Source: Candidatus Desulfaltia sp.
Lineage (GTDB): Bacteria > Desulfobacterota > Desulfobacteria > Desulfobacterales > ETH-SRB1
DNA length: 64,000 bases
Direction of reading: 5' to 3'
NCBI GenBank assembly: GCA_030656555.1
Contig: JAUSPN010000040.1
Coordinates: forward strand, 375-64,374
A program made the translations under genes and the position numbers. The notes below the pieces were generated by a model. It was given only the letters and a program-made list of their open reading frames with translations, ran no database searches and was not told where the DNA came from. The stretch's first letter is position 1, and each line of letters begins with the position of its first letter. Of this stretch, positions 36,200 to 62,275 are shown piece by piece.

Positions 36200-36281
36200 A
36201 GCGATCCTGATGGAATTATGTATGGCCTGTTTTCCCAGGCCGGTAGTTGAATGCCGATTTCAGTAATGGAGGATGAAGTGG

Positions 36282-36680
36282 ATGAATGATAAAAACAAAA
36301 TCATCACCGGTTTAATCATTTTTGTTATATTTATAACGTTTCCTTTTTGGTATAATATGGGGAAAGCAGCTCCTGTCCCCGAACCAAAACTGACAGAAAA
36401 GGCAAAACTTGAAAAAGAATGTATTGAGCCAAAGGAGTTTATGAAGGCAGAGCACATGCAGATACTTGATGTCTGGAGAGAATCTGTTGTAAGGAATGCC
36501 AGCAGGACTTATGTGAGCAAAACAGGCAAAAAATTTAATATGAGTCTTGCCAGCGGAGATGATTCATGTATTGGATGCCATTCCAGCAAGGCTGATTTTT
36601 GTGATAAATGCCACAATTATGCATCGGTAAGACCTTACTGCTGGACTTGTCACATAGAGCCGCCAAAGGAGAAGAAGTAA
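36282..36680 (+). CDS. dsrJ: Triheme cytochrome c
   Basis: CIGCH, CDKCH, CWTCH; HMQILDVWR; start placed at ATG 36282. Confidence 0.96.
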   Translation: MNDKNKIITGLIIFVIFITFPFWYNMGKAAPVPEPKLTEKAKLEKECIEPKEFMKAEHMQILDVWRESVVRNASRTYVSKTGKKFNMSLASGDDSCIGCHSSKADFCDKCHNYASVRPYCWTCHIEPPKEKK

Positions 36681-37465: not shown

Positions 37466-37472
37466 GGTTATT

Positions 37473-38633
37473 ATGCTTGAATTAGCGATTAAAGGTAGCA
37501 AAAAATACTGGGTTTGGATTCTGAGCTTGCTCGCTGTTATGAGCATTGCTTTTTGTTTCTGGCTGTGGCAGCTTAGTTTCGGCCTTGGAATTACAGGTAT
37601 GAGCAGAGACGTTTCATGGGGTTTTTATATCGCCCAATTTACATTTCTTGTCGGTGTTGCAGCAGGGGGTGTTATGGTGGTTCTTCCATACTACCTCCAT
37701 GACTATAAAGCTTTCGGCAGGATTACTATTTTAGGTGAGTTTCTGGCTATAGCGGCTGTTATCATGTGTCTTATGTTTATTATTGCAGATCTTGGACAAC
37801 CTATGCGCGCTCTTAATGTTTTATTATATCCAACGCCGGGATCTGTCCTTTTTTGGGATATGATAGTGTTAAACGTGTATCTTTTGCTGAATATCATTGT
37901 GGGTTGGAATGTGATTGAGGCAGAACGGAATAATGTGCATTATCCAAGCTGGATAAAGGTACTTGCGATTTTTTCTATTATATGGGCGCCGGCCATACAT
38001 ACTGTAACAGCCTTTTTATACTGTGGTTTGCCGGGAAGGGGCTTCTGGCTAACCGCTATTCTTGCTCCGAGATTTCTTGCTTCAGCCTTTGCCGCAGGCC
38101 CTGCATTATTAATTCTTTTGTGCCTTATCATCAGGAGGGTAACAAAGTTTGATCCAGGCAGGGAACAGATTCAATCTCTTGCTAAAATTGTAACATATGC
38201 GATAATAATCAATGTATTTTTCTTCCTTTGTGAAATATTTGTAGTCTTTTACAGCAGAATACCGAGCCACATGTCTCATATAAAGTACCTTTTTTTCGGG
38301 CTTCACGGACATGCCGCACTGGTTCCATGGATGTGGGCATCAATGGCGTTTATGGTGATATCGATTATTCTCCTTGCTAATCCTGTTACCCGCAAAAATG
38401 AAGCTGTTCTGGCTTTTGCGTGCGTAATACTGTTTATCGGAACATGGATTGATAAAGGGCTTGGAATGATCTCAGGCGGATTTGTGCCGAACCCGCTCCA
38501 TCATGTTACCGAATATATCCCAACATTACCGGAGCTTGTTATAGCTCTCGGTGTTTGGGCAACGGGATTTTTTGTATTAACCCTGCTTTTCAAGATTGCT
38601 GTTACTGTTAAGGAAGAGGTTTCCGGGGTATAA
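37473..38633 (+). CDS. dsrP: NrfD-family membrane protein
   Basis: GITGMSRDVSWG, ADLGQP, HTVTAF, WIDKG; last gene of dsrMKJOP. Confidence 0.96.
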   Translation: MLELAIKGSKKYWVWILSLLAVMSIAFCFWLWQLSFGLGITGMSRDVSWGFYIAQFTFLVGVAAGGVMVVLPYYLHDYKAFGRITILGEFLAIAAVIMCLMFIIADLGQPMRALNVLLYPTPGSVLFWDMIVLNVYLLLNIIVGWNVIEAERNNVHYPSWIKVLAIFSIIWAPAIHTVTAFLYCGLPGRGFWLTAILAPRFLASAFAAGPALLILLCLIIRRVTKFDPGREQIQSLAKIVTYAIIINVFFFLCEIFVVFYSRIPSHMSHIKYLFFGLHGHAALVPWMWASMAFMVISIILLANPVTRKNEAVLAFACVILFIGTWIDKGLGMISGGFVPNPLHHVTEYIPTLPELVIALGVWATGFFVLTLLFKIAVTVKEEVSGV

Positions 38634-47313: not shown

Positions 47314-47745
47314 TATTCAACCACCCAGACCAACTCCGGGACTTCCGGAACGCCCCTAAAAGAAATGGGGCCACCCATTATCTTTTGTTTTTTTATGGTA
47401 TGATAGCCTTTGGCACTTTTCCCAGGATATTAATTCCTTCATCCACAAATTCACAAAAGGGAAGTTCCCTCTCTATTTGTGCCAGATGCTCTTCGGAAGG
47501 TTCTTCCATTTGCAACTGCCATTTAATCCAAAAGCATTTTCCAGTATAAGGCTTTCCGTCTTTTTCATAAATTAATGCTCCATGTCTGGCGCTTTTATCT
47601 GCATGTTTTCCAAAGAATACAGCGGCTGCCAGAGCAGATGGTGCTTTAATCATGCGTTCATTAGAAATAATAACTGCTTTGTATATGTGTAGTTTCATAA
47701 TTGCCCGATTTTTAATCCAATTTTTCTTATTCAACCACCCAGACC
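47314..47745. repeat. 18-bp direct repeat of the USP gene 3' end flanking a small gene
   Basis: TATTCAACCACCCAGACC at 47314-47331 and 47728-47745. Confidence 0.85.
47393..47698 (-). CDS. Hypothetical protein (101 aa)
   Basis: MKLHIYKAVIISNERMIKAP...; co-oriented just after USP; start placed at ATG 47698. Confidence 0.6.
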   Translation of the reverse strand: MKLHIYKAVIISNERMIKAPSALAAAVFFGKHADKSARHGALIYEKDGKPYTGKCFWIKWQLQMEEPSEEHLAQIERELPFCEFVDEGINILGKVPKAIIP

Positions 47746-48194
47746 GTACAGTTGCGCGCATAGTTGACGATCTTGCTGGAAACACTCCCGAAGAGGAATT
47801 CCTGGCTTCGTGAAAGCCCTTGTCTTCCAACAACTACGGTGCTGTATTCGGCCTCGTCTTTTTCTTCCAGGATGCATGTTGCCATGGAAGGACAGTGGCG
47901 CATTATAGAACGAACCGAAACCACGCTTGGATCAAAACCGCCTTGTATCAATATCTGACGGTAGTCTTCAAGTGTTTTATCAACCTTCTTTTTATGCTGA
48001 TCAAGCCATTTGTCTCTCTCTTCCAAAGTGGGAAAGTAATCTTCCTCGGGTTCAGGAATTACATGCAGGACAGATACCCTGAAGCCTTTAGCGCCTTCCA
48101 GAAGTTTAGCCACATATAAAACCGCACGACGAGCGTTCTCTGACTCATCAACCGCAATAAGGATATTCTTGTTAAAAATATGCTCTTTATTCAT
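47727..48194 (-). CDS. Universal stress protein
   Basis: ILIAVDESENA, VVGRQG, FLFGSVSSKIV. Confidence 0.92.
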   Translation of the reverse strand: MNKEHIFNKNILIAVDESENARRAVLYVAKLLEGAKGFRVSVLHVIPEPEEDYFPTLEERDKWLDQHKKKVDKTLEDYRQILIQGGFDPSVVSVRSIMRHCPSMATCILEEKDEAEYSTVVVGRQGLSRSQEFLFGSVSSKIVNYARNCTVWVVE

Positions 48195-49173
48195 GCTTTT
48201 TCTCCTTGCAAGTCTGCATAAACCCTTCTAAATCCTCCAGCAACTGACCGGTGTTATCATAAAACCAGTTGGCGCCTCGTGAAAAATGCATTAGAACCGT
48301 GTTAAGGATTTCAGGTATATAGGGATAAACCTTTTTTAAGTTTGCCACGCGATTGTGAAAAACAATATTAACATCATCATCTGTCAGCAAACTTAAAGCA
48401 GGATGGTTTTGATTTTTAAGGTCGGTCATCATTAGATCGCCCATTCCTGTCAGAAATATTAAAATATTACCCAAACCAAAAAGATCATAACCATATATAT
48501 TCTCTCTGTGGCGGTAATTATAGTCAAAATCTATCCAGCGGAAATCTCCGCTGTTCCTGTCAATGAAAATATGATCTCTACGGATATCACCGTGTTTCTC
48601 ATTATTTTCGTGTAGAAATTTAACAGCCTTAATACACTCAATATATTTACTTAAAATGTCCGGAAACAGCTCATAAAAATAAGCCTTATGATCAAGCTTT
48701 AAGTTTTGCACATAAGCATGGATAGTTTCTCCATTAATTACGTCTAATACTCTAACAATATTAGCCTTTTCATCTTCTACCGCATATCCATGCATGAAAT
48801 TTTTATGACCGGCTACCAGCTTCAATATGCGCGCCTCTTTTTTTGGGCTTCTAAAGCACTCGAACGGAATGCCTGCTATATTAGCCGTAAACTTTTCATG
48901 AAAAACGAGCTTTAAGATCTTCCTGCTCCCATCAGTCAAGTCAACTGATCGCTTAACCCAGAATTTTTCCTCATCATCAAGCCCGAAACGTCCTTCCTTT
49001 GTATTATGCAGAACCAGAAATGGTTTTTCATTAAGAACAACCACGCTTCCATATTCGACACGGAAAAAATCCGAGGTATCTTTATAAATTTTAAACCGAT
49101 AACTTTCAGGGCGAGGAGATGTCCACCGCGCAATCATTTGATGAAGAGTCTCTTGAGATATAGATTTTGCCAT
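48187..49173 (-). CDS. Protein-kinase-like protein
   Basis: KLVF Lys, KKEARIL alphaC Glu, HGDIRRDH catalytic loop, IDFD. Confidence 0.72.
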   Translation of the reverse strand: MAKSISQETLHQMIARWTSPRPESYRFKIYKDTSDFFRVEYGSVVVLNEKPFLVLHNTKEGRFGLDDEEKFWVKRSVDLTDGSRKILKLVFHEKFTANIAGIPFECFRSPKKEARILKLVAGHKNFMHGYAVEDEKANIVRVLDVINGETIHAYVQNLKLDHKAYFYELFPDILSKYIECIKAVKFLHENNEKHGDIRRDHIFIDRNSGDFRWIDFDYNYRHRENIYGYDLFGLGNILIFLTGMGDLMMTDLKNQNHPALSLLTDDDVNIVFHNRVANLKKVYPYIPEILNTVLMHFSRGANWFYDNTGQLLEDLEGFMQTCKEKKHE

Positions 49174-49346: not shown

Positions 49347-50024
49347 TCAAAGGCCCGCAACCTCTTTGCCGCAATGCTTGCAGACGTTGGCTCTTTTTTT
49401 TATTATTTCAGCGCAAAACGGACATTCCCGCGTATAATGTCTTTCATGTATCTTTTTTATAGATTCATCGACCTGTTTTTGAATAAGCTGATTACCGAAT
49501 TTTACATTTCTGATCGGATCGATCGACTCCAGACATCCAACATCACCAATCATTTCAGCTGCTTTAAGCCTGACCCTTACCGGCTCTGTTGCATCTAAAA
49601 GCAATCTTAATATTGTAATGTCATCCTTTTCCACATAACAGCCGGCAAGAATTGAAAACCCTTTCTTTATAGCCTCTTTCAACATATCCTCCTGTATAAG
49701 GACCTGTTCATCAACAACCTGCCCTGTTGCTCCTGATTTGCTGAAAACAGGCATACATTCGAACGTTCCTGAACTGGGATAGCACATGCATCTGTAAGAA
49801 GCATGATGGCCATAATCTTCCTCAACTTTATCCCACCCCTGATTATATAATGAGCATTCATCATTAAAACATACAAACAGGTAGGGTTCACCCCATCCAA
49901 GGCCGTCGCCCATAGAAACAGGAGGCACCTCCCATAAGTTCATTTCTTTGCCGCAATGAGGACATGTTGGTTTCTCCTGAGATAGTATCTTTTCTAAAAC
50001 TTGTTCCTTTGTTTCAAAATTCAT
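49347..50024 (-). CDS. Zinc-ribbon plus HEAT-like repeat protein
   Basis: CPHC...CFNDEC; RLKAAEMIGDVG; CPFC...CKHC; start placed at ATG 50024. Confidence 0.75.
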   Translation of the reverse strand: MNFETKEQVLEKILSQEKPTCPHCGKEMNLWEVPPVSMGDGLGWGEPYLFVCFNDECSLYNQGWDKVEEDYGHHASYRCMCYPSSGTFECMPVFSKSGATGQVVDEQVLIQEDMLKEAIKKGFSILAGCYVEKDDITILRLLLDATEPVRVRLKAAEMIGDVGCLESIDPIRNVKFGNQLIQKQVDESIKKIHERHYTRECPFCAEIIKKRANVCKHCGKEVAGL

Positions 50025-50197
50025 TGGATTTCCTCTTAAATTAACAGTTTCGTAACGCAACAGTTATTACCTGATATCTCGCATAATACCCTCTTTGATC
50101 AAACAGGTCAATAACAATGACAAAATTAAGATTGCCACACAGCAATGACCAAAATATCCAGCAGGCCGCCGGCAAAAACGGGATAGAACAGGGTGGT

Positions 50198-50815
50198 TTA
50201 TTCTCGATCAGCCTTATTGTCGGCGGGTTTGGGTTTCATCAAATCAGAAAAGCTCATAATTTTTTCAGAATCTTTATATTTATCCAACATTTTTTGCATT
50301 TTTTTAAAATAAGGAAGCTTGTGTTTGATCTTGCCAAAGAGGATGCGGGCAAGGATATACATGGGTATGAATGTGAAGGAATATCCCGCTGATTCTCCCA
50401 GTGCGGGAAGACGGCAAGGCAACAAGAACTCCACATCTAAGAAACGCGTCTGCATCCAGCCCAGGGCAAAGGGGATTGGCCATAAGGAAGAGGCTGCAAG
50501 GGCTATCTGTTTAAAAAATACCTTTCCAAAGGCCTCATTAGCTTCTTTATTACATGCCTTGTAACTCATCTTGTCTTTGGCCATCAGAGCCTGAACAGAA
50601 AGGTTCTGCATCCTTACCATCTTCCGGTTGTCATGATCAATGTACTTTTTATTAAATCTAAAAGCCAGGGAGATGGTAAACTCGCCTATAATGACACAAA
50701 TCACGGATAAGACAAGAATTCCAATAAAATAGCCAATCACAGGATTTGTTGTGATGCGAAAAAAAAAGATCAGAAAGGTGTCAATATTCAAGTAAATGGT
50801 TTGGAAAAAATTCAT
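50198..50815 (-). CDS. Hypothetical membrane protein
   Basis: Hydrophobic segments; SSLWPIPFALGWMQTRF; in an operon with TauE. Confidence 0.75.
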   Translation of the reverse strand: MNFFQTIYLNIDTFLIFFFRITTNPVIGYFIGILVLSVICVIIGEFTISLAFRFNKKYIDHDNRKMVRMQNLSVQALMAKDKMSYKACNKEANEAFGKVFFKQIALAASSLWPIPFALGWMQTRFLDVEFLLPCRLPALGESAGYSFTFIPMYILARILFGKIKHKLPYFKKMQKMLDKYKDSEKIMSFSDLMKPKPADNKADRE

Positions 50816-50921: not shown

Positions 50922-52091
50922 CTAAAATGGCGGTACAATGCTGAATCCGAGAAATCCCACGCTCGTGTACCGAACGCCCACATAGAGCGCCAATACTATA
51001 AAAAGCCTCTTAAGCCAGACTTCCGGAAAGTACTTTGAGGTACGGGGACCGATCATGGAACCAACAAAGATACCGATAAGCTCAACGCCGATCAACGGCC
51101 AGTAAATCATTGTGCCCTTGACGACCATATAGGTGAAGATACTCACTACCATCCCCACCAATACAGTAAGGGCTGATGTGCCGGCCACTATGAACATGGG
51201 CAGGCCCGCGACACTCGTCAGGAACGGAACGAACAGGAAGCCGCCACCCACACCGATAAACGAAGCTATCATTGCGATAAAAAAGCCACCAAGCACAGGT
51301 ATGATGGGACGGAAACTGAACTCCACTCCATAGAAAGTAAAGACTACCCTGCCAAAGCCAAATTTTTTGATCTTAACACCACGTTTTTCATCTTTTTCAG
51401 CTATATCCTTTCCCTTTACGCTTTCTTCAAAGGCCCTGGCTGCTTTTGAAGCTTCCTTCCTTTTTCTCTGCCCCGCTGGAAGCGTTTCCCACAAGAGAAC
51501 AAATGCTACGGCAAACACGCAAAGCCCAAAGTAGCCTATATACGCTTTCAATGAAATCTTGCCTGCTGTCAGGATTGGCACCAGGATGCTGCCCCCGACA
51601 GCGCCAATGGCCAGGCATATGCCGAGAGGCAACACGAGTCTGCCCATTCTATAGTAATTGAGGCTTGAGATGGCCGCGCTCAAACCTACCAGCCACTGGT
51701 TCGACACCCGGATGCTGTCTGTTATCAGTTTGTTAAGGGTTGGTGACGTCTCCTTAAAGGCCTTGCCGTAATTGGCCAGTCCAAAGATCGTAATATGTCC
51801 AACGCCTGCCATGATCCCTCCAAAAGCGCCTACTGTAGAAAAAATCCAGCCTACCCATATGGCCCAAAAAAAGGCTAAAATTAAACTGGGTGATGGCGCT
51901 CCTGGAATCCCTAACCATCCAGGCTTGGCCTTCGGATCAATCTGGCCCTTTTCGGTGCCCTGGGGTGTTTTGGCAATAGCCTCGGTGAGTCTATCCCCGG
52001 CCGCATGAGCTGAGGCAGCAATCAGAATCGGCGATACAAAGAATACGCTTAGAACAAAGATCGCAAAAAATACTTTCAAGTTTTTACTCAT
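50922..52091 (-). CDS. TauE/SafE (TSUP) family exporter
   Basis: Signal-like N-terminus; STVGAFGGIMAG, IGVGGGFLFVPFL, AGTS; multiple TM helices. Confidence 0.88.
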   Translation of the reverse strand: MSKNLKVFFAIFVLSVFFVSPILIAASAHAAGDRLTEAIAKTPQGTEKGQIDPKAKPGWLGIPGAPSPSLILAFFWAIWVGWIFSTVGAFGGIMAGVGHITIFGLANYGKAFKETSPTLNKLITDSIRVSNQWLVGLSAAISSLNYYRMGRLVLPLGICLAIGAVGGSILVPILTAGKISLKAYIGYFGLCVFAVAFVLLWETLPAGQRKRKEASKAARAFEESVKGKDIAEKDEKRGVKIKKFGFGRVVFTFYGVEFSFRPIIPVLGGFFIAMIASFIGVGGGFLFVPFLTSVAGLPMFIVAGTSALTVLVGMVVSIFTYMVVKGTMIYWPLIGVELIGIFVGSMIGPRTSKYFPEVWLKRLFIVLALYVGVRYTSVGFLGFSIVPPF

Positions 52092-52194: not shown

Positions 52195-52210
52195 TGCAAG
52201 CAATATGCCA
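52195..52210 (-). promoter_or_regulatory. Sigma-54 -24/-12 promoter for the TauE operon
   Basis: TGGCATATTGCTTGCA on the minus strand (GG-N10-GC). Confidence 0.75.
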
Positions 52211-52502: not shown

Positions 52503-53906
52503 TTAATTTCTTGCACTTTTTCTAAATTTAGCTGATTTAATATTGCATTTTTTCATAATCTGTTGCGAAGATTGCTTTTTCAGCTCGCATAGTTGGGCAG
52601 CTCTTGTTACATTGCCGCCTGTTTTCTGCAAGGCTTTAGTTGCATAATTAATATTAAAATCTTGCAAAACCCGCTGTTTTGCCTTTCGATATAGAAGGTC
52701 TTCCTCTTTTTTAAAAGAAAAGCCCTTTTGTTTAGAAGCAATATCCCATCCAATATCAGAAACTTTAACTTTATCGCCAGGCGCCATAACCACCGCTTTC
52801 TTTATAATATTTTCTAATTCCCTTACATTGCCGTTCCAGTCGCTGTCTAAAAATAGCCCCATTAGCTCAGGAGATAGTTGCTTATTTTTCCTGTTAAACT
52901 TTGCGCAATATTTTTTCAGGAAAAATTCAGTCAAAAGGGGTATATCCTCTTTTCGTTCCCTTAATGGAGGCATATTTATGTCAACCACACAGAGCCTGTA
53001 ATAGAGGTCTCTGCGAAATTTGTTTTCCTCCATCCTAACCTTTAAGTTGATATTCGTAGACGCAATAATCCTTACATCAACATGCATTGTCTTAGTACAG
53101 CCAAGTGGTTTAAATTCTTTGTCCTCCGATATCTGCAAAAGTTTTGTCTGGACAGACGGACTGATGTCTCCAATTTCATCAAGAAAGATAGTGCCTCCAT
53201 CAGCCTCTTCAAAAAGTCCTTTCCTGGTTTGAACGGCATTGGTAAAGGCTCCCTTTGTGTAACCAAAAAGTTCACTTTCCAATATGTTTTCCGGGATAGT
53301 AGGACAGTTTATCCGAACATATGGTTTGTTACTGCGATGACTTAATGCATGTATGGCCTTTGCGGCAAGATTCTTGCCGGTGCCTGAGTCTCCGGTAATT
53401 AACACGGCAACATCGGTTTTGCTGATTATCTGTATAGTATCATACACCTTCTGCATGCATAGACTGGCACCAACAAAGTTCTGAAAGGTTTCCTCTTCCC
53501 TGATACGCTCTCGAAGGTTCAGATTCTCTCGCAGTAAGCGGCTCCGTTCCAAAGCCTTTTGCAAAAGATGTATGAGGTGGTCGTGATCAAACGGTTTGGT
53601 AATAAAGTCGTAAGCCCCTTTCTTGATCGATTCCACCGCAACTTCTATAGCGCCGTGCGCTGTCATCATGATTACCGTGAGCCATTGGTCGAGCTGTTTG
53701 ATCCGTTCAAGAAGTTCAATCCCGTTCATGCCCGACATGCGTATATCCACAAGGGCGAGATCAAACGGTTTTTGTTCAACAAGGCGGAAGGCCTCTTCAC
53801 CGCTTAAAGCTGTTTCGATCTCGCAGTCAATATGCTGTGGGATAGATCTACTCAGAAGCTTAAGCATATCTATTTCATCATCAACAATTAAGATTCTTGT
53901 TTTCAT
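52503..53906 (-). CDS. Sigma-54-dependent response regulator (NtrC family)
   Basis: REC domain, GDSGTGKNLAA, ESELFG, GAFTNA, WNGNVRELEN, HTH. Confidence 0.94.
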   Translation of the reverse strand: MKTRILIVDDEIDMLKLLSRSIPQHIDCEIETALSGEEAFRLVEQKPFDLALVDIRMSGMNGIELLERIKQLDQWLTVIMMTAHGAIEVAVESIKKGAYDFITKPFDHDHLIHLLQKALERSRLLRENLNLRERIREEETFQNFVGASLCMQKVYDTIQIISKTDVAVLITGDSGTGKNLAAKAIHALSHRSNKPYVRINCPTIPENILESELFGYTKGAFTNAVQTRKGLFEEADGGTIFLDEIGDISPSVQTKLLQISEDKEFKPLGCTKTMHVDVRIIASTNINLKVRMEENKFRRDLYYRLCVVDINMPPLRERKEDIPLLTEFFLKKYCAKFNRKNKQLSPELMGLFLDSDWNGNVRELENIIKKAVVMAPGDKVKVSDIGWDIASKQKGFSFKKEEDLLYRKAKQRVLQDFNINYATKALQKTGGNVTRAAQLCELKKQSSQQIMKKCNIKSAKFRKSARN

Positions 53907-55888
53907 AGTGTTGTATTGTCATAAACAGGAAGCGTAACAATAAATGTCGCTCCATTTCCAGGCTCACTTTGCACAGAAATTTCACCGTTATGTTCCTTAA
54001 TAATTCCATAGCTTACTGAAAGGCCAAGGCCTGTGCCCAGACCGGTCGGCTTGGTAGTAAAAAATGGATCAAATATCTTGTTGATAATATTAGTCGGAAT
54101 GCCGGAGCCGCTATCTTCAACGATAACACATACCCTGTTATGGTTTGGCGCAAATGTCTTAATAGTAATATCTCCGGATTCTGATATTGCCTGCCTGGCA
54201 TTCATTAAAAGGTTCATAAAGACCTGTTTGAGTTTTTCCTCGTCTCCAGTGACAGGTTGTATGCTTTCATCAAGAACTGTTACAAGACTTACATTGTCAA
54301 GTTCGAATTGATGTCTGATAACGGCAATTATATTTTTGATGGTCTGGTTTATATTTATCGCTATTTTTTGTGTTTCCGTTTTTCTGGCAAAATTCAGCAG
54401 GGCTTCAACAATTATTTTGCAATTACATGTTTGCTTTTCTATTGTTTTAAGGTCTTCAAATACTTGAGGACCTTTAGATTCACCACGCATCAAAAGCTGT
54501 GTGTATCCAAGAATCAGGCCGAGCGGATTATTGATTTCATGGGCTATTCCCGCAGAAAGCTGGCCAAGAGAGGCCAGCTTATCGGCCTGAAGCAACTGCT
54601 GCTTCATATCTTTCCATATAGTGATATCCTTTATTATCCCTTCATGTCTAAGTATCTGACCTGTTTCGTCTTTTTGAGCCGTGCTGCTGAAAAGAGCTTG
54701 AAGTTCACAACCGTTTTTTGTCTTTAATTTATATTCCATGTCTTTGATAAATCCTTTAGACCCGATTTCATTAAGCATGTTTTCATAATGCTCAGTCTCG
54801 ACAAAGAGATCGGCCAGATTCACGGATTGAAGGAAGTCTTCTCTGGTGTCATAGCCAAGCATTTCAATGCCGGCCCGGTTGATATCTATAAAGCGGCCAT
54901 GGTTGCCGGCTATAAATATCAGGTCTATAGAGCCTTCGAATATTCGGCGATACCTCTTTTCGGATTTTTCTATAGTTTCTGCTGATTGTTTTAATTGCGT
55001 TATATTGTTTTTCAAGGTCAGGGCCATGGCATCAAAGGCCTCTGCCATTTCCTGGATCTCGTCACCCGATAGCCTGGAATATACCTCACAGGTCCGGCAG
55101 CTAATAATTTTTTTTGCATATTTACCGTCAATGCAATTCGGGCACATGGTGCCCGCAAGATACCAGCAGCGCCTGCGCCTGTCACCATAAGCAGAGCATG
55201 CCTCTCTGTTGCAGCTCATGATTTCCCAGCAGTTTTTGTTCAACAATGGGGCTGTCTGGATATCCAGATCGCCGCTTAATGCTTTTTCAGATGCCTGGCG
55301 CAGCTTTTTTACTCTTTTTGTAACCTGATCGGCAAAACCTGCCCCAACAAGACCGGCAATAAGTATTGTCAATCCGGTTAATAGAAAGATCGTTCCCAAT
55401 AGATCTTTGATCGTTTGTTCAATTCTTGTTCTTGAAAGACCCAGCCGCACAGTTCCAAGCCGGTGATTTTCTATGAACACAGGCGCAGCAACATCGTAAA
55501 TCAGATATTCTCCGGTATCCAGGAGCCTGATGCTGTAATCCTGATCTTTTGAAACACTGTTCGCTTTTTTAAGCTCGACTGGAAAGCCTTCCTGAAATGT
55601 GTGAGCCAGGGTCTGTCCATTTTGATCAAGTATAAATGCGTATGGAATATCATCGCCTGAATCAGAGACTTCATCGATCAGATCCTTCATGCGAAGGAAA
55701 TCCACAGCCAGAATCGGGTCCTGGGCTCGGGCGGCGAGGTTTAAGGCAATGGATATTCCTCTGTGTTTACACTCGGTCGATAATGCTTCTGCAACTATTA
55801 TTCTCACAGACAGAGCCATCAGCAGCCCTGAGAGCAGAACTATGGAAATGATGCCGGTGTAAACTTTTCCTCTAAAGCTAAATTTCAT
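53903..55888 (-). CDS. Membrane histidine kinase: HAMP with 8-Cys insert, PAS, HisKA, HATPase
   Basis: Two TM helices; CWEIMSC...CWYLAGTMC...CRTC; HEINNP, MNARQA, DSGSG, GTGLG. Confidence 0.92.
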
Positions 55889-55893
55889 TTTGC

Positions 55894-56820
55894 TTATCTA
55901 TCCAGATCAATTCCCAACCCTGTCAACAGGTTTCTAACAGAATTAAATTCCGAATCTTTAGAGTGAGCAACACCTGTGATATCGGCCATATCGAGTATTT
56001 TTCTATGTTCAGGGTTATCATAATTTAGCCTCAAGAGAGCATCTCTTATCCTGCCGACAATTTCCGGGTCGAGTTCTCGCCGCGAAGCATATACCCAACC
56101 AGGATACCATTTACTGTGTGCAACAACCCTGATCTGACCTATGTCGATCTTGTCGGCCACAACATTCAGCGTCCCTTCCCGAATGGAGCCTATGTCATAT
56201 TTGCCCGCATATACGGCAAGGACCACTTTTTCCTGTTTACCACCCGGACCTGGAGAAAAGGCGATTTCAGCAAAGTCTTTTTTGGTAATGCCGTGGTCAT
56301 AAAAATGCCCCAACGGATAAAGATATCCACCGGCAGATGATGGATCAACAGCAATCCAGCGCTTGCCTTTGCAATCTTCAAGCGTTTTTATCTTCTTATT
56401 GTCAGAGCGGCATATGATCTGTCCTCTAAAGTTTTTCTTGCCGTAAACTTCTATCACCTGCGCAAAGGCGCCGGCTCCACAGCGATGGGCAATCTTTACG
56501 TAAACACAGGGATTGGAAAACGAAATATCTATCTTGCCCTGCTCTACCATCCTCATGTGTTCGTCAAAGGTGTCAGGAAATACCTGTTTAATGTTAAGCC
56601 CTGTTTCCTTTTTAAGATACTCTATCAGCAAGTAATGTCTTTGATAGGAAACAGTGTGTGAATATTGCGGCAGATAGGCATATGTAATCGCATTTTCTGC
56701 CTCTTTTACATATACTGCTTCCCGTTTGCTCAGGTCAATTTTTTGAACCAATTCGTCTTCAAAGCAGCCACAAAACAAAAAGTTTGTTAATAAAAGTATT
56801 ATTGAAATCCCTTTTTTCAT
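55894..56820 (-). CDS. PhnD/SsuA-like periplasmic oxyanion-binding lipoprotein
   Basis: Lipobox-like LFCGC; YLPQYS, FSNPCVY, DPSSAGGY, YDIGSIRE; start placed at ATG 56820. Confidence 0.85.
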   Translation of the reverse strand: MKKGISIILLLTNFLFCGCFEDELVQKIDLSKREAVYVKEAENAITYAYLPQYSHTVSYQRHYLLIEYLKKETGLNIKQVFPDTFDEHMRMVEQGKIDISFSNPCVYVKIAHRCGAGAFAQVIEVYGKKNFRGQIICRSDNKKIKTLEDCKGKRWIAVDPSSAGGYLYPLGHFYDHGITKKDFAEIAFSPGPGGKQEKVVLAVYAGKYDIGSIREGTLNVVADKIDIGQIRVVAHSKWYPGWVYASRRELDPEIVGRIRDALLRLNYDNPEHRKILDMADITGVAHSKDSEFNSVRNLLTGLGIDLDR

Positions 56821-57112
56821 AATTATTATCCGTTGAACTGCAATGGTGAGCAAATTAAACAGTTTCTATGCAGAATATGTCCAAATGTCAAGATGATTGA
56901 CCTCATGGTGCAATTTTTATATTGCAGAACAATAGTATTATTTTAGCATTATGTATTTCATTAATATCATAGGATAAATATTTACTATCCTCTTTCAACT
57001 GTCACTGTAATATTGCATTCAAAACCTAATTTATAAAACTATTTTCAATACATATCATAAAATTAGCGTATAACCTACTGTAATAGTAATATAAATCACG
57101 CATGCCAACAAT

Positions 57113-57128
57113 CGGCACTCTTTTTGCA
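57113..57128 (+). promoter_or_regulatory. Sigma-54 -24/-12 promoter for the oxidoreductase operon
   Basis: CGGCACTCTTTTTGCA (GG-N10-GC), 50 nt before the ATG. Confidence 0.72.
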
Positions 57129-57178: not shown

Positions 57179-59977
57179 ATGCAAGACAGTAAATCAATAA
57201 AGGCAACGGCAAAGGCGCTTCAATTTCTATCCACCTTGTATCGTGACGAAATACCTCTTGATTTAGTAAGCATGATGCAAAAAGCCGATTTTACAGAAAA
57301 GCTTTCCGGCGCTGCAAAGGAATCAGGTGCCGGCATTTTTGAGGAAGCTGTTTCTCAGATAACCTCATTTTTGAACGCCGGCAACAAAGAAAAGGTTTAT
57401 AAAGAACTAAGCTACGAGTATGCTGATCTATTCCTGAACGCCGGGGCAAACCCGGTTTTCCCCTATGAATCCGTTCATGTAAGTAAAGAACCGGTTGTAA
57501 TGCAAGCGCCTGTTTTCGAACTGCGCAAGGCTTTTTATAAGGCCGGCGTACACAAATCTGAAGACTACAAAGATCTTGATGAGCACATTGCCGTGGAGAT
57601 AGAATTCCTAAGATATCTTCTGGACATGGAAATGACAGACAAATACACCGAATTTTTCAAAGACAGGTTCTTAGCCTGGGTGCCCTCTTTTTGCGAACAG
57701 CTTGAAAATTGCGCTCAAACCGATTTCTACAAAGGCCTGGCCAAACTTACCCGGGCGGTTATTGAGTGTTCCATGACTACCCTGTCTGAATCTGCAGGAG
57801 ATGCTGAAAAAGCTATAAATAGTTTAGCTGCTTCTGTAGGCGAGCTGAATTTAGATTCAGGATATGTTACCCTAACTGAAGGATCTGTTGAGCCTGAACC
57901 GGCAAAGAATATCCCGAGCCATTGTTACACCTGCGGCGCTCTTTGCGGAATGGTGGCAAACCTAAAGGACGGTATACTTGTAAAAACTTCCGGCCTTCCC
58001 GGAGATCCCAAGGGAGGCGGAAGGCTCTGTCCCAAAGGAGCTTCCGCAAACAAACATCTCTACTCCCCTTACAGATTAAAAAGCCCTATGATAAAGGAAA
58101 ATGGTCGTTTCCGCAAGGCAAGCTGGGATGAAGCCCTGGATAGAGTGGTCCAGGGAATTAAGAGCATTGAGCAGGGTAAACTTGGCTATTTCAGAGGTAA
58201 TGACTATGTAAACTGGATACATGAAGCCCTCTTTGACCATCTCGGCTGCCCCAAAGGCACTCACAGGACAATGTGCGACAACTCCAACCGCATGGCAAAC
58301 GAGCATAATTTAAATGACAAACGCCCCTGGATAAACTATCAAGAATCGGATTATATTATTCATTTTGGGATAAATGAACTCGCAACATCAATCGGTCAAC
58401 GCAAAACGGCCGAATTTAGAGAGGCGATCAAAAACCGTGCAAAACTTGTTGTCTTTGATCCGAGAAAATCCGAAACAGCTTCTTCCGCAACTGAGTGGAT
58501 ACAGATAAAACCGTCAACAGATGGCGCCGTGGCAATGGCCATGTGTTATGTTATCATTAAAAATGATCTGTATGATAAAGAATTTGTGGCCGACTGGACT
58601 TACGGATTTGAAGAATTTAAAAAGAGAGTTTTAGGAGAAGAGGATGGCGTTGCCCGCACCCCTGAGTGGGCCGAAAAGATAAGCGGCGTTCCAGCCAAAA
58701 CCATTGAGCGTATTGCTGTTGAATTCGCCGGCTCTAAAAATAAAGGCGTAATCTCGTGGGCCGGAGTTGCCCAGGGGCCAAACTCAATGTATGCCACAGC
58801 CGCTATTCAGGCATTAAACGGTCTCTGCGGCGCCTTTGACGCGCCAGGCGGCCCTTCACTGCCTTTTAAACGCAAGCTGAAGTCTGCCTGGGGGGAGGGC
58901 CAGGAAAAACCGCCAAAGACACCAGCCCCCAAACTCGACAAATTTGGCCTCTGGTCAGGCTGGGCGCCGGCAAACATGTTGGCCGATGTTGAAGCTGGAA
59001 AGCTTAAAGGGATGATCACATATTTTGGCGATCCTGTATTATCAGCCGGCAACCAGGAAGCCATCACCAAGGCTATTGAGATGATGGGGTTTAATGCAAT
59101 TATCGAGGCTTACATGTGCAACACAGCTCTCCTCTGCGACGTTATTCTCCCTGATGCCACATGGATGGAGCAGGCACAGATCAAACCGGACTGGCTTTAC
59201 GACGCCTTTATCGGCTACTATGCCGAAGTGGTAAAGCCGATGTACAACACAAAGCCCATATGGAAAATAATTGTCGAGCTGGCCGGCAAACTAAATCTTG
59301 GACACTTCTTCCCATGGGAAAACATCGAAGAGGCATTCCGCAATCAGATGGCAGGTCTCCCATGGTCTTTTGATGAACTAAAAGAAAAAGGATTTATTAT
59401 CACCGACGAAGCTGAATATTATAAATATAAAAAGTGGGGCTCACTCAACCCACCTGAAGGTTATGGATCATCAGGTAATACAAAAACCGGAAAATATAAC
59501 TTCCTGAACCCAGTGGCCCGGGAAAAAGGCATAGACCCGCTTCCTGACTATAAAGAACCGGATAAAGAGTTCCAGCCGGATGAAGAATATCCCTTTATCT
59601 TCGGCAACTTCAGAGTTCTTGGGCACGAACACTCTTCAACATTCAACAATTACTATCTCATGAAGCAATATAGCACAAATCCACTCTGGATCAATATGCT
59701 TGACGCTCAGAAACTGGGAATAACCGAAGGGGACAGGGTAAAGCTCAAGTCTCCATGGGGCGAGGTCGATATGGTGGCCAACCCAACATGGCGCATTATG
59801 AGCGGAGTTCTGGCAACTGCCGGAGGTTTCGGCCATATCCGGGGCATAGAGGGTGATCCAAAGTATCCGCAGTTCGGCGGGGTAAACACTCCAGGCATTA
59901 TGAAGCCTAACACAACCGAAGAAATCGGCGGCACCCCCCTGCGCAAGTATATAAAAACCAAAGTTGTAAAATTATAG
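57179..59977 (+). CDS. TorD/DmsD chaperone fused to a Mo/W-bisPGD oxidoreductase (PsrA/PhsA-like)
   Basis: PYES and DEHIAVEIEF chaperone motifs; CYTCGALC...LCPKG 4Fe-4S; HRTMCD Cys ligand; DVILPDATWME; molydopterin-binding C-terminal domain. Confidence 0.88.
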   Translation: MQDSKSIKATAKALQFLSTLYRDEIPLDLVSMMQKADFTEKLSGAAKESGAGIFEEAVSQITSFLNAGNKEKVYKELSYEYADLFLNAGANPVFPYESVHVSKEPVVMQAPVFELRKAFYKAGVHKSEDYKDLDEHIAVEIEFLRYLLDMEMTDKYTEFFKDRFLAWVPSFCEQLENCAQTDFYKGLAKLTRAVIECSMTTLSESAGDAEKAINSLAASVGELNLDSGYVTLTEGSVEPEPAKNIPSHCYTCGALCGMVANLKDGILVKTSGLPGDPKGGGRLCPKGASANKHLYSPYRLKSPMIKENGRFRKASWDEALDRVVQGIKSIEQGKLGYFRGNDYVNWIHEALFDHLGCPKGTHRTMCDNSNRMANEHNLNDKRPWINYQESDYIIHFGINELATSIGQRKTAEFREAIKNRAKLVVFDPRKSETASSATEWIQIKPSTDGAVAMAMCYVIIKNDLYDKEFVADWTYGFEEFKKRVLGEEDGVARTPEWAEKISGVPAKTIERIAVEFAGSKNKGVISWAGVAQGPNSMYATAAIQALNGLCGAFDAPGGPSLPFKRKLKSAWGEGQEKPPKTPAPKLDKFGLWSGWAPANMLADVEAGKLKGMITYFGDPVLSAGNQEAITKAIEMMGFNAIIEAYMCNTALLCDVILPDATWMEQAQIKPDWLYDAFIGYYAEVVKPMYNTKPIWKIIVELAGKLNLGHFFPWENIEEAFRNQMAGLPWSFDELKEKGFIITDEAEYYKYKKWGSLNPPEGYGSSGNTKTGKYNFLNPVAREKGIDPLPDYKEPDKEFQPDEEYPFIFGNFRVLGHEHSSTFNNYYLMKQYSTNPLWINMLDAQKLGITEGDRVKLKSPWGEVDMVANPTWRIMSGVLATAGGFGHIRGIEGDPKYPQFGGVNTPGIMKPNTTEEIGGTPLRKYIKTKVVKL

Positions 59978-60020
59978 TATTGAAGGATTTGCAAAAAAAA
60001 TTATATTTTATGGGCAACAT

Positions 60021-60194
60021 TGATGAATTCGTAAAAAGTCCCTTTAGCCTGTCATTTCGAGTGAAACGAGAAATCCTTGTTTCGACGACAGGAGAAATCT
60101 TGCTGCAACCTATTGAAAAGATAAGATTTCTCCCTGTGGTCGAAATGACACAAATGACACATTCGATGAATCCGACTTTTTACGAGTTCATCAA
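60021..60194. mobile_element. MITE-like element: 21-bp terminal IRs around a REP-like palindrome
   Basis: TTGATGAATTCGTAAAAAGTC / GACTTTTTACGAGTTCATCAA; inner GTCATTTCGA/TCGAAATGAC and GGAGAAATCT/AGATTTCTCC. Confidence 0.8.
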
Positions 60195-60225
60195 CATTGA
60201 GTAATTTTGGGAAAAGGAGAACTCT

Positions 60226-61584
60226 TTGAAAAAAGGCAAAACGCTTGTTTTTGTATCATTTATTTTGTTATCATTATTTTTAATGAGCCTCACCCCAATT
60301 GTCTCATTTGCCAGAGCAATTACAATTGACAGCGAATGTATAAACTGTCACACCAACCTGAAAAAACTGATCCGTCTTTGCTGGGAAATCGAAAAAACAA
60401 GGTCAAAGGCGGGTAACTCGGCTGAAACATCCGGTGAAGGATGAGGCGGGCCGCTGGCTCCGTTGGAGTTATACGAAAAGATCTACGTTAATCCCTCTTT
60501 TTTAAAAACCGATCATGGTGAAATTGCATGTGTGACCTGCCACAGTGGAGATCCAAAAAACCCAGACTGGCAAACAGCGCACAAGGGAATCGTTAGAGAC
60601 CCCACATTTCCTGATGCCGGCAATACATGCGGGGAATGCCATGAAGATATTGTTAAAACCGCTAAAAACAGCCTGCATTTTACTCTGGCGCCTTTTAAAA
60701 AGATTATTGAAACACGGGCCAACAAACATGATAAGACTGTTTTTAAAAAGGTCTGCGGGGCAGCAGAAAAGCACTGCAACGCTTGTCACTCCAGTTGTGG
60801 TCAGTGCCATGTAAGCCGTCCTGATTACGCCAAAGGCGGCTTTCTGGCCGGTCATCTCTTCCAGAAAAAACCGTGTATGGACACAACATGTTCGAGCTGC
60901 CACGGCGGTCGGGTGTACGGAGAATTTACAGGTTTAAACGACGGATACCCGGCAGATGTTCATTATGAGAAAAAGGAGATGACGTGCATGGACTGCCACA
61001 CCGGAGAAGAGATGCACGCTGATGCCTCAGGTCTGTCCAGCAGGTTTGATCTTCCCGAGCGACCGGCATGCAAAAAATGCCACCCAAATGTTCTGTCTGA
61101 AAAACCTGAAACCAGGTCGCATAGCATTCACAGAGAGAAGGTTGCATGCCAGGTCTGTCATGTTGTAGCCAATAAAAACTGCTTTGGTTGCCATGTGGGA
61201 ACCGATAAAAAAGGGCTCCCCTTTTACAAGTCCGGAGAGACCAAAATGCTCTTTAAAATCGGACTCAACATAAACAAGACAAACGAGAGGCCCTATAACT
61301 ATGTGGTTTTGCGGCATCCGCCGGCAGATCCGGGGCTGTTTGATTTTTATGTAAAGAATGGACTGGCGGATTTTGATAAGCTTCCGACCTGGAAGCTTGA
61401 TACACCCCACAGTATTCAGCGGATAACCCCGCAGAACAAGACCTGCAATAACTGTCACGGCAATCCCGCACTCTTTTTGCAGGAAAAAGATGTAACCGGA
61501 TGGGAACGTAAGGCCAATGCCGGTGTAATTGTTCCGGACAATAAGATACCGGAACCTGTAAAAGAGGAGGCTGCCAAACAATGA
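60226..61584 (+). CDS. Exported 11-heme cytochrome c with in-frame UGA (probable selenocysteine), 452 aa
   Basis: ORFs 60226-60444 and 60463-61584 share one frame, split only by TGA at 60442-60444; signal peptide; 1+10 CxxCH motifs. Confidence 0.82.
60457..60469 (+). promoter_or_regulatory. Candidate bacterial SECIS apical stem-loop
   Basis: GCTCC-GTT-GGAGT starting 13 nt after the UGA, with G first in the loop. Confidence 0.5.
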
Positions 61585-61693: not shown

Positions 61694-62275
61694 ATGAAGC
61701 ACGTTAAAAGGACATTGGTACTATCTATTGCTCTGGTTTTTGTTTTAAGCGGACTTGCCTTTGCAGGATTCGCATACAAGGTAGAAAAGGCTCATATCGG
61801 TGGCGATCTCACACCCTCGGAGGCCTTTGAGATGATCGAAAAAGATCCAGGCCATACCTTTCTGGTTGATTGCAGAACCCGTGCCGAATATCAATTAATC
61901 GGCTACCCAAAAGGGGCCTGCAATATCCCTTTGCAATTCTGGACCGGCAAGTTTGGGGAAAAGGAATATGGAAATGCCGCTAATCCTGATTTTGGCAAGG
62001 ATCTTCTGGCCCGGTTCAATCCAAAGACCGACACATTGTTGTTTATATGCCGGAGCGGCAGCAGGAGCTGCGCTGCATGCAACGAAGCGGTTAAGGCGGG
62101 ATTTGCCGAAAACAAGGTGTTTAATGTAATGGGCGGTTTTGAAGGGGGCAAGGTAAAATGCAAATCAAGCGCTTACTCAGGCCAGCGCAAGCTTGGCGGA
62201 TGGCGCAATGAAGGCCTTCCCTGGACATATCATATGGACAAAAAACTGGTCTATCAACCTGATATCGCAAAATAA
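61694..62275 (+). CDS. Exported single-domain rhodanese
   Basis: Signal peptide; LVDCRTRAEY, active loop CRSGSR, NVMGGFEG, GWRNEGLPW. Confidence 0.92.
   Translation: MKHVKRTLVLSIALVFVLSGLAFAGFAYKVEKAHIGGDLTPSEAFEMIEKDPGHTFLVDCRTRAEYQLIGYPKGACNIPLQFWTGKFGEKEYGNAANPDFGKDLLARFNPKTDTLLFICRSGSRSCAACNEAVKAGFAENKVFNVMGGFEGGKVKCKSSAYSGQRKLGGWRNEGLPWTYHMDKKLVYQPDIAK

Follow-up and report, generated by a model that had tools for sequence, protein, structure and literature searches.

A rare but conserved fusion of a TorD-family chaperone with a Mo/W-bisPGD enzyme in sulfate reducers

TorD-family chaperones have been described as separate proteins. TorD and DmsD, which serve TorA and DmsA, bind the twin-arginine leader of their client and release it before export, while NarJ, likewise free, serves the cytoplasmic NarG, whose partner subunits are NarH and NarI. 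Two sites on NarG are bound by NarJ, a helical remnant of a Tat peptide and a second one on the enzyme core; NarG is so far the only client for which the location of this core site is established (PMC10609526). On the enzyme side, PsrA of Thermus thermophilus (2vpw) and PhsA have a Tat leader, the partners PsrB/PsrC and a membrane anchor, and for Desulfobacterota, thiosulfate cleavage by leaderless, cytoplasmic PhsAB-like enzymes has been proposed (PMC13490349). In the following, we describe a family in which chaperone and enzyme form a single chain. An earlier note on this DNA had asked whether such a fusion might already be a characterised family; in the literature searched, including a REMP evolution paper, a MopB superfamily paper and a maturation review, we found neither a natural TorD-enzyme fusion nor a study of such a family.

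The fusion gene lies at positions 57179–59977 (forward strand) of the window, the whole stretch of 64,000 nucleotides analysed here, and encodes 932 residues in one uninterrupted open frame. As the earlier note had claimed, about 200 residues of TorD domain stand ahead of a catalytic subunit, and a PF02613 match and the full set of Mo/W-bisPGD domains share one open reading frame. The TorD/NarJ-family chaperone domain (57179–57778, forward strand; residues 1–200) is all-helical, with helices as the only secondary structure that DSSP assigns to residues 4–202 of the AlphaFold2 model. It matches the Pfam family Nitrate_red_del/TorD (PF02613) over residues 54–173 with 76.6 bits (cut-off 22.2) and aligns with the NCBIfam TorD model over residues 7–202, but stays below the cut-offs of the named equivalogs (TorD, 78.2 versus 132 bits; DmsD, 43.9 versus 162; DMSO_red_II_cha, 36.1 versus 152). 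Its best match in the PDB is the S. massilia TorD (1n1c, E = 4e-10), and its invariant residues are D23, E24, Y81, A82, F85, L86, N87, G89, P92, P95, Y96, P105, V139 and W167. Two proteins of 274–279 residues, P0129 and P0165, which could be taken for free-standing close homologues of this domain, run into the FS0 domain and are fragments from contig ends.

The chaperone domain is followed by a linker of about 40 residues (57779–57904, forward strand; residues 201–242) with an amphipathic helix, and by the FS0 [4Fe-4S] domain (57905–58072, forward strand; residues 243–298), recognized as Molybdop_Fe4S4 (PF04879) at residues 243–296. The FS0 pattern is C249-x2-C252-x3-C256-x27-C284, followed by K286, and all 50 sequences compared have the four cysteines and K286. 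The molybdopterin-binding domains (58073–59866, forward strand) comprise Molybdopterin (PF00384, residues 299–703; 115.9 bits versus a cut-off of 24) and Molydop_binding (PF01568, residues 807–896; 48.9 versus 26.8 bits). Within the motif H-R-x-M-C-D-N, the family-invariant Cys366 (codon at 58274–58276, forward strand) is the predicted Mo/W ligand; in a HMMER alignment, it pairs with Cys173 of Thermus PsrA, which we take to be the Mo ligand of that enzyme. On the sequence level, the protein therefore has the hallmarks of a MopB-superfamily catalytic subunit, namely both Pfam domains, the FS0 motif and the metal-ligand cysteine. The AlphaFold2 model of the fusion protein (pLDDT 93.5, pTM 0.92) has an ordered linker helix, and its pTM suggests that the TorD domain stays docked.

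Few sulfate reducers have the fusion, but it is conserved. Proteins with the same four Pfam domains form more than 120 clusters at 90% identity, and we located their genes at 63 genome loci, including six from Archaeoglobales or other archaeal MAGs; the hosts seen belong to sulfate-reducer lineages of two domains, Bacteria and Archaea. In a survey of 401 genomes of the phylum Desulfobacterota, five (about 1%) have the gene, and it is absent from a genome of the same genus as the window. A 28.6-kb contig from an independent groundwater metagenome covers the whole fusion ORF at about 92% identity, and the indels in this relative are confined to an in-frame 12-nt insertion in the linker and a compensated +1/−1 pair. 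The earlier note had named a stop between the domains, and hence an assembly artefact, as the finding that would speak against it; with an uninterrupted fusion ORF in more than 60 genomes and an independent metagenome contig, we reject this explanation.

The analyses of distribution and phylogeny that had been proposed there depict an isolated family. Identity to the window protein is 51% or more throughout the family but does not exceed 36% for the nearest unfused enzymes, and the full-length fusion scores 1155 bits against the sole other full-length 50% representative versus 284 bits against the best unfused enzyme. The fused clade is monophyletic (support 1.0) on a stem of 0.72 substitutions per site, and the candidate placements of its sister group have supports of 0.12–0.76. 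The archaeal sequences constitute a single clade nested among the bacterial ones. Among the nearest unfused relatives, two candidates for a pre-fusion state with adjacent torD and psrA-like genes were discarded: in P0131, the upstream gene encodes DUF1638, not TorD, and P0140 belongs to a PsrABC-TorD operon of the ordinary archaeal kind.

The fusion enzyme is leaderless and probably cytoplasmic. Upstream of its ATG, the frame continues for only six sense codons before a stop (an open frame of 938 residues), and therefore a hidden leader is impossible. Furthermore, the first 245 residues of the window protein contain no RR dipeptide, the protein lacks an N-terminal S/T-R-R-x-F-L-K motif with a hydrophobic stretch behind it, and no twin-arginine motif is conserved across 53 family members, so the earlier statement that there is no Tat signal holds. 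Likewise, no PsrB-like or NrfD-like gene is present in the window operon, and a motif scan of the neighbours within 3 kb detected a ferredoxin-type cysteine motif at only 3 of the 63 loci, with none at the other 60.

Both neighbours of the gene do carry export signals, as had been observed before: the upstream PhnD-like protein has a lipoprotein-like N-terminus (MKKGISIILLLTNFLFCGC), and downstream, leader-like starts are found in the cytochrome (MKKGKTLVFVSFILLSLFLMSLTPIVSFARA) and in the rhodanese, whose leader is hydrophobic. The earlier note had suggested that the fusion protein might be exported with a Tat-signal partner such as DsrO and work in the periplasm, an idea that the exported proteins on both sides favour, as does the known hitchhiking of some Tat substrates. 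We find this scarcely credible, as the surroundings of the gene contain no conserved Tat-signal partner, the strongly conserved 200-residue cytoplasmic chaperone domain would need export too, and the conserved permease neighbour described below favours an intracellular substrate. DsrO and DsrP, the speculative partners proposed at the time, are canonical subunits of the DsrMKJOP operon at 33585–38633, in which every subunit scores above its equivalog cut-off, and nothing connects them to the fusion gene. The other option raised, a cytoplasmic enzyme, is well supported and the best reading of a leaderless protein with no conserved Tat motif.

The linker may retain a trace of a different past. 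Its helix (residues 207–223, block pLDDT 89–92) is located where a Tat leader would sit, and its surroundings are conserved in character, with hydrophobic residues at L216, A/V219, V/L220, L223 and L225 preceded by K/R-rich positions 214–215; in 3 of 53 family members, the linker even contains the sequence TRRM[VI]. The helix is possibly a vestigial Tat peptide.

Among described enzymes, the catalytic part is most similar to PsrA and PhsA. A phmmer comparison with PsrA (2vpw) yields an E-value of 3.5e-68 and 233 bits, at about 27–30% identity, and PsrA is also the best Foldseek match (TM-score of 0.80 on the target), with ArrA second (0.74). The top NCBIfam match is the PhsA model NF012032, but with 263.3 bits against a cut-off of 694, an assignment to the PhsA equivalog fails. 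His145 and Arg332 of PsrA, which we take to be the active-site residues proposed in the 2vpw work, correspond to G340 and to a gap, respectively, in a HMMER pairwise alignment that is not decisive at this level of identity. A non-redox hydratase or lyase akin to acetylene hydratase would explain the missing electron-transfer partner; that enzyme, too, is monomeric, leaderless and partner-less, and 2e7z is among the PDB matches. Such a function is nevertheless highly improbable, since the position of the Asp that presumably follows directly on the second FS0 cysteine of acetylene hydratase is taken by the nearly invariant Gly253, the electron-relay residue Lys286 is invariant, and the similarity to PsrA is much higher (233 versus 136 bits).

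Directly downstream of the fusion gene, the window encodes an 11-haem selenocysteine cytochrome and a rhodanese on the same strand. All three proteins could plausibly take part in sulfur chemistry, and the gap between fusion and cytochrome would shrink to about 60 nt if an inserted, dispersed 185-nt nested hairpin repeat were removed; given this gap, the two genes may be co-transcribed in this strain. A single polysulfide or sulfur-redox operon, composed of the cytoplasmic enzyme, the periplasmic cytochrome and the rhodanese, is very unlikely all the same. The window locus is the only one with a multihaem neighbour; at the other 63 fusion loci, flanks of up to 10 kb contain no cytochrome, and the cytochrome-rhodanese pair adjoins none of them. 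In the 92% identical relative, the sequence diverges right after the fusion stop codon, and the pair is absent there. The repeat itself separates the genes, and the proteins would reside in different compartments with no membrane-spanning link. The indirect coupling to the periplasmic cytochrome that the earlier note had considered is thus not borne out by co-occurrence, and we have dropped cytochrome and rhodanese as partners of the fusion. They are a separate module, adjacent to the fusion gene only in this strain, and the local annotation is corrected accordingly. As a side observation, a 61-nt fold following the UGA of the cytochrome, considered as a SECIS element, is no better than those of shuffled sequences (z = 0.76).

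The recurrent partner of the fusion gene, judged by adjacency, is instead a TauE/TSUP-family permease together with a small membrane protein. In this respect, the earlier claim that there are no partner subunits needs to be amended: it is right for PsrB and PsrC, but it overlooked this conserved pair. In the window, the permease (50922–52091, reverse strand; PF01925, 79.7 bits) is directly followed by a membrane protein of about 200 residues (50198–50815, reverse strand; clusters c15, c3 and c22), which has no Pfam hit, but is related to the archaeal cluster c22 (E = 2e-4) and marginally to c3. Across loci, this small protein always comes immediately after TauE. TauE is present at 30 of the 63 loci and at 15 of the 25 that are well flanked, i.e. 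that have at least 3 kb on both sides; at 14 of these 25, it lies within 3 kb. In Bacteria as well as Archaea, it shares an operon with the fusion gene: in the Archaeoglobales, the order is LysR, fusion, TauE and TM protein, with gaps of 39–47 nt, and at another locus (L033), it is TauE, c3, c16 and fusion, with gaps of 25, 3 and 19 nt. The fusion-TauE module has moved between the two domains of life as a single unit.

By phyletic pattern, TauE is not a dedicated partner, with orthologues in 78 of the 401 phylum genomes versus 5 for the fusion, and the link is one of adjacency. Being far more common than the fusion, TauE must have a function of its own and may simply be a favoured neighbour. 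This bears on the idea that the enzyme is bound, on the cytoplasmic side, to a complex of TauE and the small membrane protein, which would serve as an anchor in place of PsrC, as a substrate channel and possibly as a link to the quinone pool. TauE and one or two small membrane proteins are indeed the only conserved neighbours, operonic in both domains of life, and no soluble redox partner is conserved across the 63 loci. Still, we judge such docking improbable, as the small membrane proteins lack a Pfam hit, about 40% of the well-flanked loci have no TauE nearby, and many genomes that lack the fusion have a TauE orthologue.

Regulatory elements connect the two units in the window. A sigma-54 (−24/−12) promoter, CGGCAC-N5-TTGCA (57113–57128, forward strand), is found 51 nt upstream of the fusion ATG; a pattern search gave two matches in 64 kb, with 0.18 expected. 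A second promoter of this type, TGGCAT-N5-TTGCA (52195–52210, reverse strand), faces the TauE operon. A related TGGTAT-N5-TTGCA precedes the fusion gene at 8 of 50 other loci. Among RNA runs, a search retrieved none with the fusion gene. The two promoters flank genes for a PhnD-like periplasmic oxyanion-binding lipoprotein (55894–56853, reverse strand; PF12974, 198 bits), a likely co-sensor, for an sCache-HAMP-PAS histidine kinase identified by domain search (53903–55888, reverse strand), and for an NtrC-type sigma-54 activator with REC and AAA+ domains, identified by its domains and matches (52503–53906, reverse strand). Kinase or regulator genes (cluster c1) occur at 15 of the 25 well-flanked loci and PhnD-like homologues at nine fusion loci. 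The PhnD-like protein matches phosphate, phosphite and phosphonate SBPs, a putative selenate SBP and the sensor domain of TtrS; sensors of this type detect tetrathionate and thiosulfate (PMC5408782).

These matches are relevant to the question of the substrate. With the same architecture and location, the enzyme could detoxify or assimilate a non-sulfur oxyanion, such as selenate, arsenate, chlorate, nitrate or a phosphite-like anion, which would enter via sulfate-type permeases, and have no part in sulfur respiration. The sensor's best matches are to the phosphorus-oxyanion and putative selenate SBPs, ArrA is the second-best structural match, His145 and Arg332 of PsrA have no counterparts in the indecisive alignment, and a rare accessory gene (5 of 401 genomes, absent within the genus) is what detoxification genes often look like. 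On the other hand, the nearest sequence families are PhsA and PsrA, the host range consists of sulfate-reducer lineages of two domains, and the consistent neighbour, TauE/TSUP, belongs to a family associated with sulfur anions (PMC5840216). We regard a non-sulfur substrate as rather unlikely.

On balance, we think it probable that the fusion protein is a soluble, cytoplasmic, single-subunit Mo/W-bisPGD oxidoreductase of the Psr/Phs branch, which carries its TorD/NarJ-type chaperone as an N-terminal domain and would be part of a module that imports and reduces an oxyanion. In such a module, the PhnD-like lipoprotein and the sCache kinase would together sense a periplasmic oxyanion, upon which the NtrC-type regulator would fire the two divergent sigma-54 promoters; TauE and its small membrane partner would then move the anion into the cytoplasm, or a product out of it. 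The TorD domain would fold first, act in cis and remain docked, while electrons from a soluble low-potential donor, e.g. a ferredoxin, would travel via FS0 to the metal and reduce the substrate. We tentatively infer this substrate to be a sulfur oxyanion, with thiosulfate as the foremost candidate; from it, sulfite and sulfide would be formed and enter the Dsr pathway in the cytoplasm. More speculatively, and with considerable doubt, the TorD domain may be a permanent subunit that clamps the vestigial Tat peptide, and thereby a record of a move from the periplasm to the cytoplasm; with TauE, the protein would then be a ferredoxin-fed, import-and-cleave reductase for thiosulfate or a related sulfur oxyanion that operates without a membrane complex.

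If true, this would provide the first natural, stoichiometric chaperone-client complex of the TorD family for structural study. The fusion is a natural 1:1 covalent complex with a high-confidence model, ready for crystallography or cryo-EM, and it bears on how TorD/NarJ-type chaperones grip the core of the apo-enzyme. Likewise, a Psr/Phs-type enzyme that works in the cytoplasm with no partner subunits, linked to a TauE/TSUP permease and to oxyanion sensing by a two-component system, would give sulfate reducers a new, minimal route for thiosulfate or related oxyanions into the Dsr pathway.

In comparison with known systems, the fusion shares the FS0 cluster and, at the same position, the cysteine metal ligand with PsrA and PhsA, but lacks their leader, partners and anchor and has gained an N-terminal TorD domain. 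Like FdhF, the ferredoxin-dependent NarB/NasA and acetylene hydratase, it is a leaderless single subunit with FS0 only, and those of these enzymes that are redox-active use a soluble electron donor; yet they all belong to other branches of the superfamily, with lower scores against the fusion protein, and we know of none with a fused chaperone. The PhsAB-like/MolyAB-TorD clusters of sulfur-disproportionating Desulfobacterota are leaderless, of the Psr/Phs type, from the same phylum and equipped with a TorD/DmsD chaperone gene, and thiosulfate or sulfite is the proposed cytoplasmic substrate of their enzymes (PMC13490349). By description, rather than by sequence comparison, they differ in having the Fe-S B subunit and the chaperone as proteins of their own, whereas the fusion family has neither. 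With TorD and DmsD, the N-terminal domain shares the PF02613 family, the motifs YxDLF...P..PYES and D/E-H-I-x-x-E-x-E-F, and presumably the job of holding the apo-enzyme for bis-MGD insertion (PMC10609526). In contrast to these separate proteins, it is covalently joined to its enzyme in all members, with neither leader nor export, and docked in the predicted structure. Finally, the NarJ/NarG pair resembles the fusion in that the client is cytoplasmic, and the linker helix occupies the place equivalent to that of the NarG peptide, just before FS0, and may be a remnant peptide as well; but where NarJ is free and NarG has two further subunits at its side, the fusion combines chaperone and enzyme in one chain.

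The fusion gene (57179-59977, + strand) is a single open frame of 932 codons, whose predicted 104-kDa product carries four Pfam domains above cut-off: a TorD/NarJ-family domain (PF02613, aa 54-173), an Fe4S4 domain (aa 243-296), a molybdopterin domain (aa 299-703) and a dinucleotide-binding domain (aa 807-896). Over aa 7-202 the protein also aligns to the NCBIfam TorD model, and among solved structures Shewanella massilia TorD (1n1c, E 4e-10) comes closest to residues 1-244; these matches agree with Pfam in placing a TorD domain ahead of the catalytic subunit, as an earlier note on this DNA had read it. The best match of the catalytic part is PsrA of Thermus (2vpw, E 3.5e-68), and Cys366, counted along this alignment, lies opposite PsrA Cys173, which we take to be the molybdenum ligand. 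The first 245 residues of the window protein contain no RR dipeptide, so there is indeed no twin-arginine motif at the N-terminus or in the linker. A hidden leader is excluded as well, since only 6 sense codons separate the ATG from the preceding stop (open frame of 938 aa).

The concern that an assembly error had concealed a stop between the domains can be set aside. The fusion is uninterrupted in more than 120 clusters with 58-74% identity, retrieved from 5.8 billion proteins, at 63 loci found by scanning one genome per species, and in a 28.6-kb contig of an independent groundwater metagenome, which spans the entire ORF at ~92% identity. Nearly all of these clusters have a length of 900-970 aa and the same four Pfam domains. 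Named carriers include Desulfohalobium retbaense and Desulfosarcina widdelii; most of the 63 loci belong to Desulfobacterales, Desulfatiglandales and Desulfohalobiaceae, and six belong to Archaeoglobales or other archaeal MAGs (53-56% identity, full length). The ~92% contig differs from the window ORF by just two kinds of indel. One is a 12-nt in-frame linker insertion at 57798, which this relative carries in two other metagenomes; the other, present in one of those two, is a compensated +1/-1 pair at 58478/58485. Length change is tolerated by the linker, not by the domains. In a 50-sequence alignment of the family, the cysteines of the [4Fe-4S] cluster domain FS0 (C249, C252, C256, C284), Lys286 and Cys366 (motif H-R-x-M-C-D-N) are invariant, as are D23, E24, Y81, A82, F85, L86, N87, G89, P92, P95, Y96, P105, V139 and W167 of the TorD domain. 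Pairs of members are on average 66-70% identical over the catalytic domains, 44% over the TorD domain and 30% over the linker, which shows that selection maintains the fused chaperone domain.

The fusion family forms a rare clade that is both tight and isolated. Among the representatives of a library of 50%-identity clusters, the window protein has a sole other full-length fused representative (P0126; 55% identity, 1155 bits), followed by an unfused full-length match with 36% identity (284 bits); the other N-terminally extended matches scanned lack a TorD domain. When the fused sequences are placed in a tree with 141 unfused representatives, they come out as monophyletic (support 1.0), set off by a stem of 0.72 substitutions per site. 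The archaeal members group together as one clade (support 1.0) within the bacterial ones, a topology that indicates a single inter-domain transfer, later than the fusion event. The gene occurs in 5 of 401 genomes sampled evenly across the phylum; within this sample, it is not in the same-genus genome. Among the nearest unfused relatives is the leaderless, 704-aa protein P0131, whose locus (L067:1-4924) is a tandem of DUF1638, MopB and MopB, another partner-less cytoplasmic MopB arrangement.

The absence of an Fe-S or NrfD partner, first remarked in the window, holds across the family: neighbours within 3 kb carry a ferredoxin-type cysteine motif at just 3 of the 63 loci. DsrO and DsrP, which had been suggested as partners, belong to a canonical DsrMKJOP operon (33585-38633), and we do not retain this suggestion. 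Export by hitchhiking on a Tat partner, a route put forward in the earlier note, is scarcely credible, since no partner with a Tat signal is conserved around the gene.

The recurrent neighbour of the fusion gene is a TauE/TSUP permease (PF01925; 50922-52091 in the window), present at 30 of the 63 loci and, where at least 3 kb are available on both sides, at 15 of 25 (within 3 kb at 14). Directly after it there is normally a gene for a ~200-aa membrane protein (in the window 50198-50815, - strand, no Pfam). Three archaeal loci have the order LysR, fusion, TauE, membrane protein, the genes being 39-47 nt apart, and locus L033 the order TauE, c3, c16, fusion (c3 and c16 being clusters of neighbour proteins) with gaps of 25, 3 and 19 nt. 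TauE orthologues are far commoner than the fusion (78 versus 5 of the 401 genomes). The permease therefore has its own function, and its link to the fusion is one of adjacency. An enzyme docked on TauE might be read from the close spacing of these genes, but given the wider occurrence of the permease we consider such docking improbable.

The membrane proteins, which are always placed behind TauE in Bacteria as in Archaea (170-205 aa; also L014:6932-7531 and L050:13875-14393), have a charged helical stretch past the first transmembrane segment and no Pfam match; their clusters are related at E 2e-4 (c15-c22) and E 0.15 (c15-c3). In a proteomic study, a 'transmembrane protein co-occurring with TauE/SafE' goes up in thiosulfate disproportionation (PMC13490349). 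The genes that come after TauE and its membrane protein in the window encode a zinc-ribbon protein (49347-50060), a protein-kinase-like protein (48187-49173; its weak Pkinase match of 29.6 bits does not reach the cut-off) and a universal stress protein (47727-48194); all are on the - strand and apparently in one sigma-54 operon with TauE and the membrane protein. Other recurrent neighbours of the fusion are two-component genes and PhnD-like binding proteins (9 loci). At seven Desulfobacteraceae loci (L009:4137-5525, L013:13030-14397, L060:12877-14265 and four more), a gene for a protein of ~455 aa with a signal peptide lies directly 3' of the fusion on the same strand. Rich in beta-strand-like sequence and with a weak match to Alginate_exp (E 2.5e-5), this protein may let the substrate through the outer membrane as a porin; the window has no such gene. 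At five loci from Desulfohalobiaceae and Desulfobacula (L015, L018, L023, L027, L037), the recurrent genes beside the fusion encode a PEP-synthase-like protein (~840 aa) and a phosphatase-like protein (~370 aa) whose C-terminal part is rich in Cys (clusters c9 and c11), accompanied by kinase and receiver genes.

In the window, the fusion gene is followed by a cytochrome gene (60226-61584, + strand), one frame with eleven CxxCH motifs and a Sec-type signal peptide, and by a leader-bearing rhodanese (61694-62275). The single in-frame TGA of the cytochrome (60445-60447, context GEG-TGA-GGP) is probably a selenocysteine codon; the 61-nt fold after it is no better than shuffles. The polysulfide reductase MccSep of Geobacter, with five haems, is far smaller than this cytochrome (PMC13510729). 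The gene order speaks for a cytochrome-coupled operon, in which the enzyme would be coupled indirectly to the periplasmic cytochrome, as had been proposed. When ORFs were called in all loci and clustered, however, no cytochrome counterpart was found beside any other fusion locus, a rhodanese counterpart was found at one, and the window locus alone had a multihaem protein in its fetched flanks. In the ~92% relative, the sequence diverges directly 3' of the fusion-gene stop codon, and there is no depth over the cytochrome. Moreover, the 248-nt spacer between the two genes contains a 185-nt nested hairpin (60015-60199; 26-nt outer arms of 88% complementarity, plus inner arms), which occurs in the 2.73-Mb genome in some ten long copies and in many fragments. 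Its contig depth is in roughly 15-fold excess across four metagenomes, and it resembles a dispersed repeat of the MITE or REP kind. Together, these findings show that the adjacency is strain-specific, and we regard the cytochrome-coupled operon as very unlikely.

A predicted sigma-54 promoter (57113-57128, CGGCAC-N5-TTGCA) lies 51 nt before the fusion-gene ATG and another (52195-52210, TGGCAT-N5-TTGCA) faces the TauE operon. Between them are genes for an NtrC-type activator, an sCache-HAMP-PAS kinase and a PhnD-like lipoprotein, which matches oxyanion-binding proteins and, weakly, the TtrS sensor domain; sensor domains of the PhnD-like type recognise tetrathionate and thiosulfate (PMC5408782). 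The best-supported reading, towards which we lean, is a cytoplasmic stand-alone reductase. Its own chaperone domain would mature it in cis and a periplasmic oxyanion signal would induce it, with TauE supplying the substrate anion and a soluble donor giving electrons at FS0. A non-redox enzyme would need no electron-transfer partner; in view of the invariant Lys286, the electron-relay residue, we give it very little weight. As the substrate, we tentatively favour a sulfur oxyanion, thiosulfate being the first choice. This assignment draws on the nearest families (PhsA and PsrA), the association of TauE/TSUP permeases with sulfur anions (PMC5840216), the PhnD-type sensor and the sulfate-reducing hosts from two domains of life, for which leaderless PhsAB-like enzymes of this phylum set a precedent (PMC13490349). 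It is a weak assignment: the PhsA model score is far below its cut-off, and PsrA His145 and Arg332 have no match in the pairwise 2vpw alignment (27-30% identity). The unmatched PsrA residues would also fit a reductase of a non-sulfur oxyanion, which the same evidence of family, permease and hosts makes rather unlikely.

The domain pair is recorded in databases, for example at JGI as 'anaerobic selenocysteine-containing dehydrogenase/TorA maturation chaperone TorD', and full-text searching found no description of a natural fusion between an enzyme and a redox enzyme maturation protein. New here are the linkage to TauE, the strain-specific cytochrome adjacency and the Tat-like linker. In an AlphaFold2 model of the whole chain (50-sequence alignment; pLDDT 93.5, pTM 0.92), for which Foldseek returns PsrA first (TM 0.80 on target) and ArrA second, the N-terminal domain is all-helical, the linker forms an ordered helix (aa 207-223) and FS0 is preceded by a short strand (aa 232-234); the pTM implies that the TorD half is packed against the catalytic half in a defined way. 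Conserved hydrophobic residues (L216, A/V219, V/L220, L223, L225) follow K/R-rich positions 214-215, three members have TRRM[VI] in the linker, and the helix lies 30-40 residues ahead of the first FS0 cysteine, where exported relatives have their Tat leader. On NarG, NarJ binds both a core site and what remains of a Tat peptide, in helical form (PMC10609526); by analogy, we propose that the linker helix is the equivalent of this remnant, a vestigial Tat peptide gripped by the fused chaperone domain.
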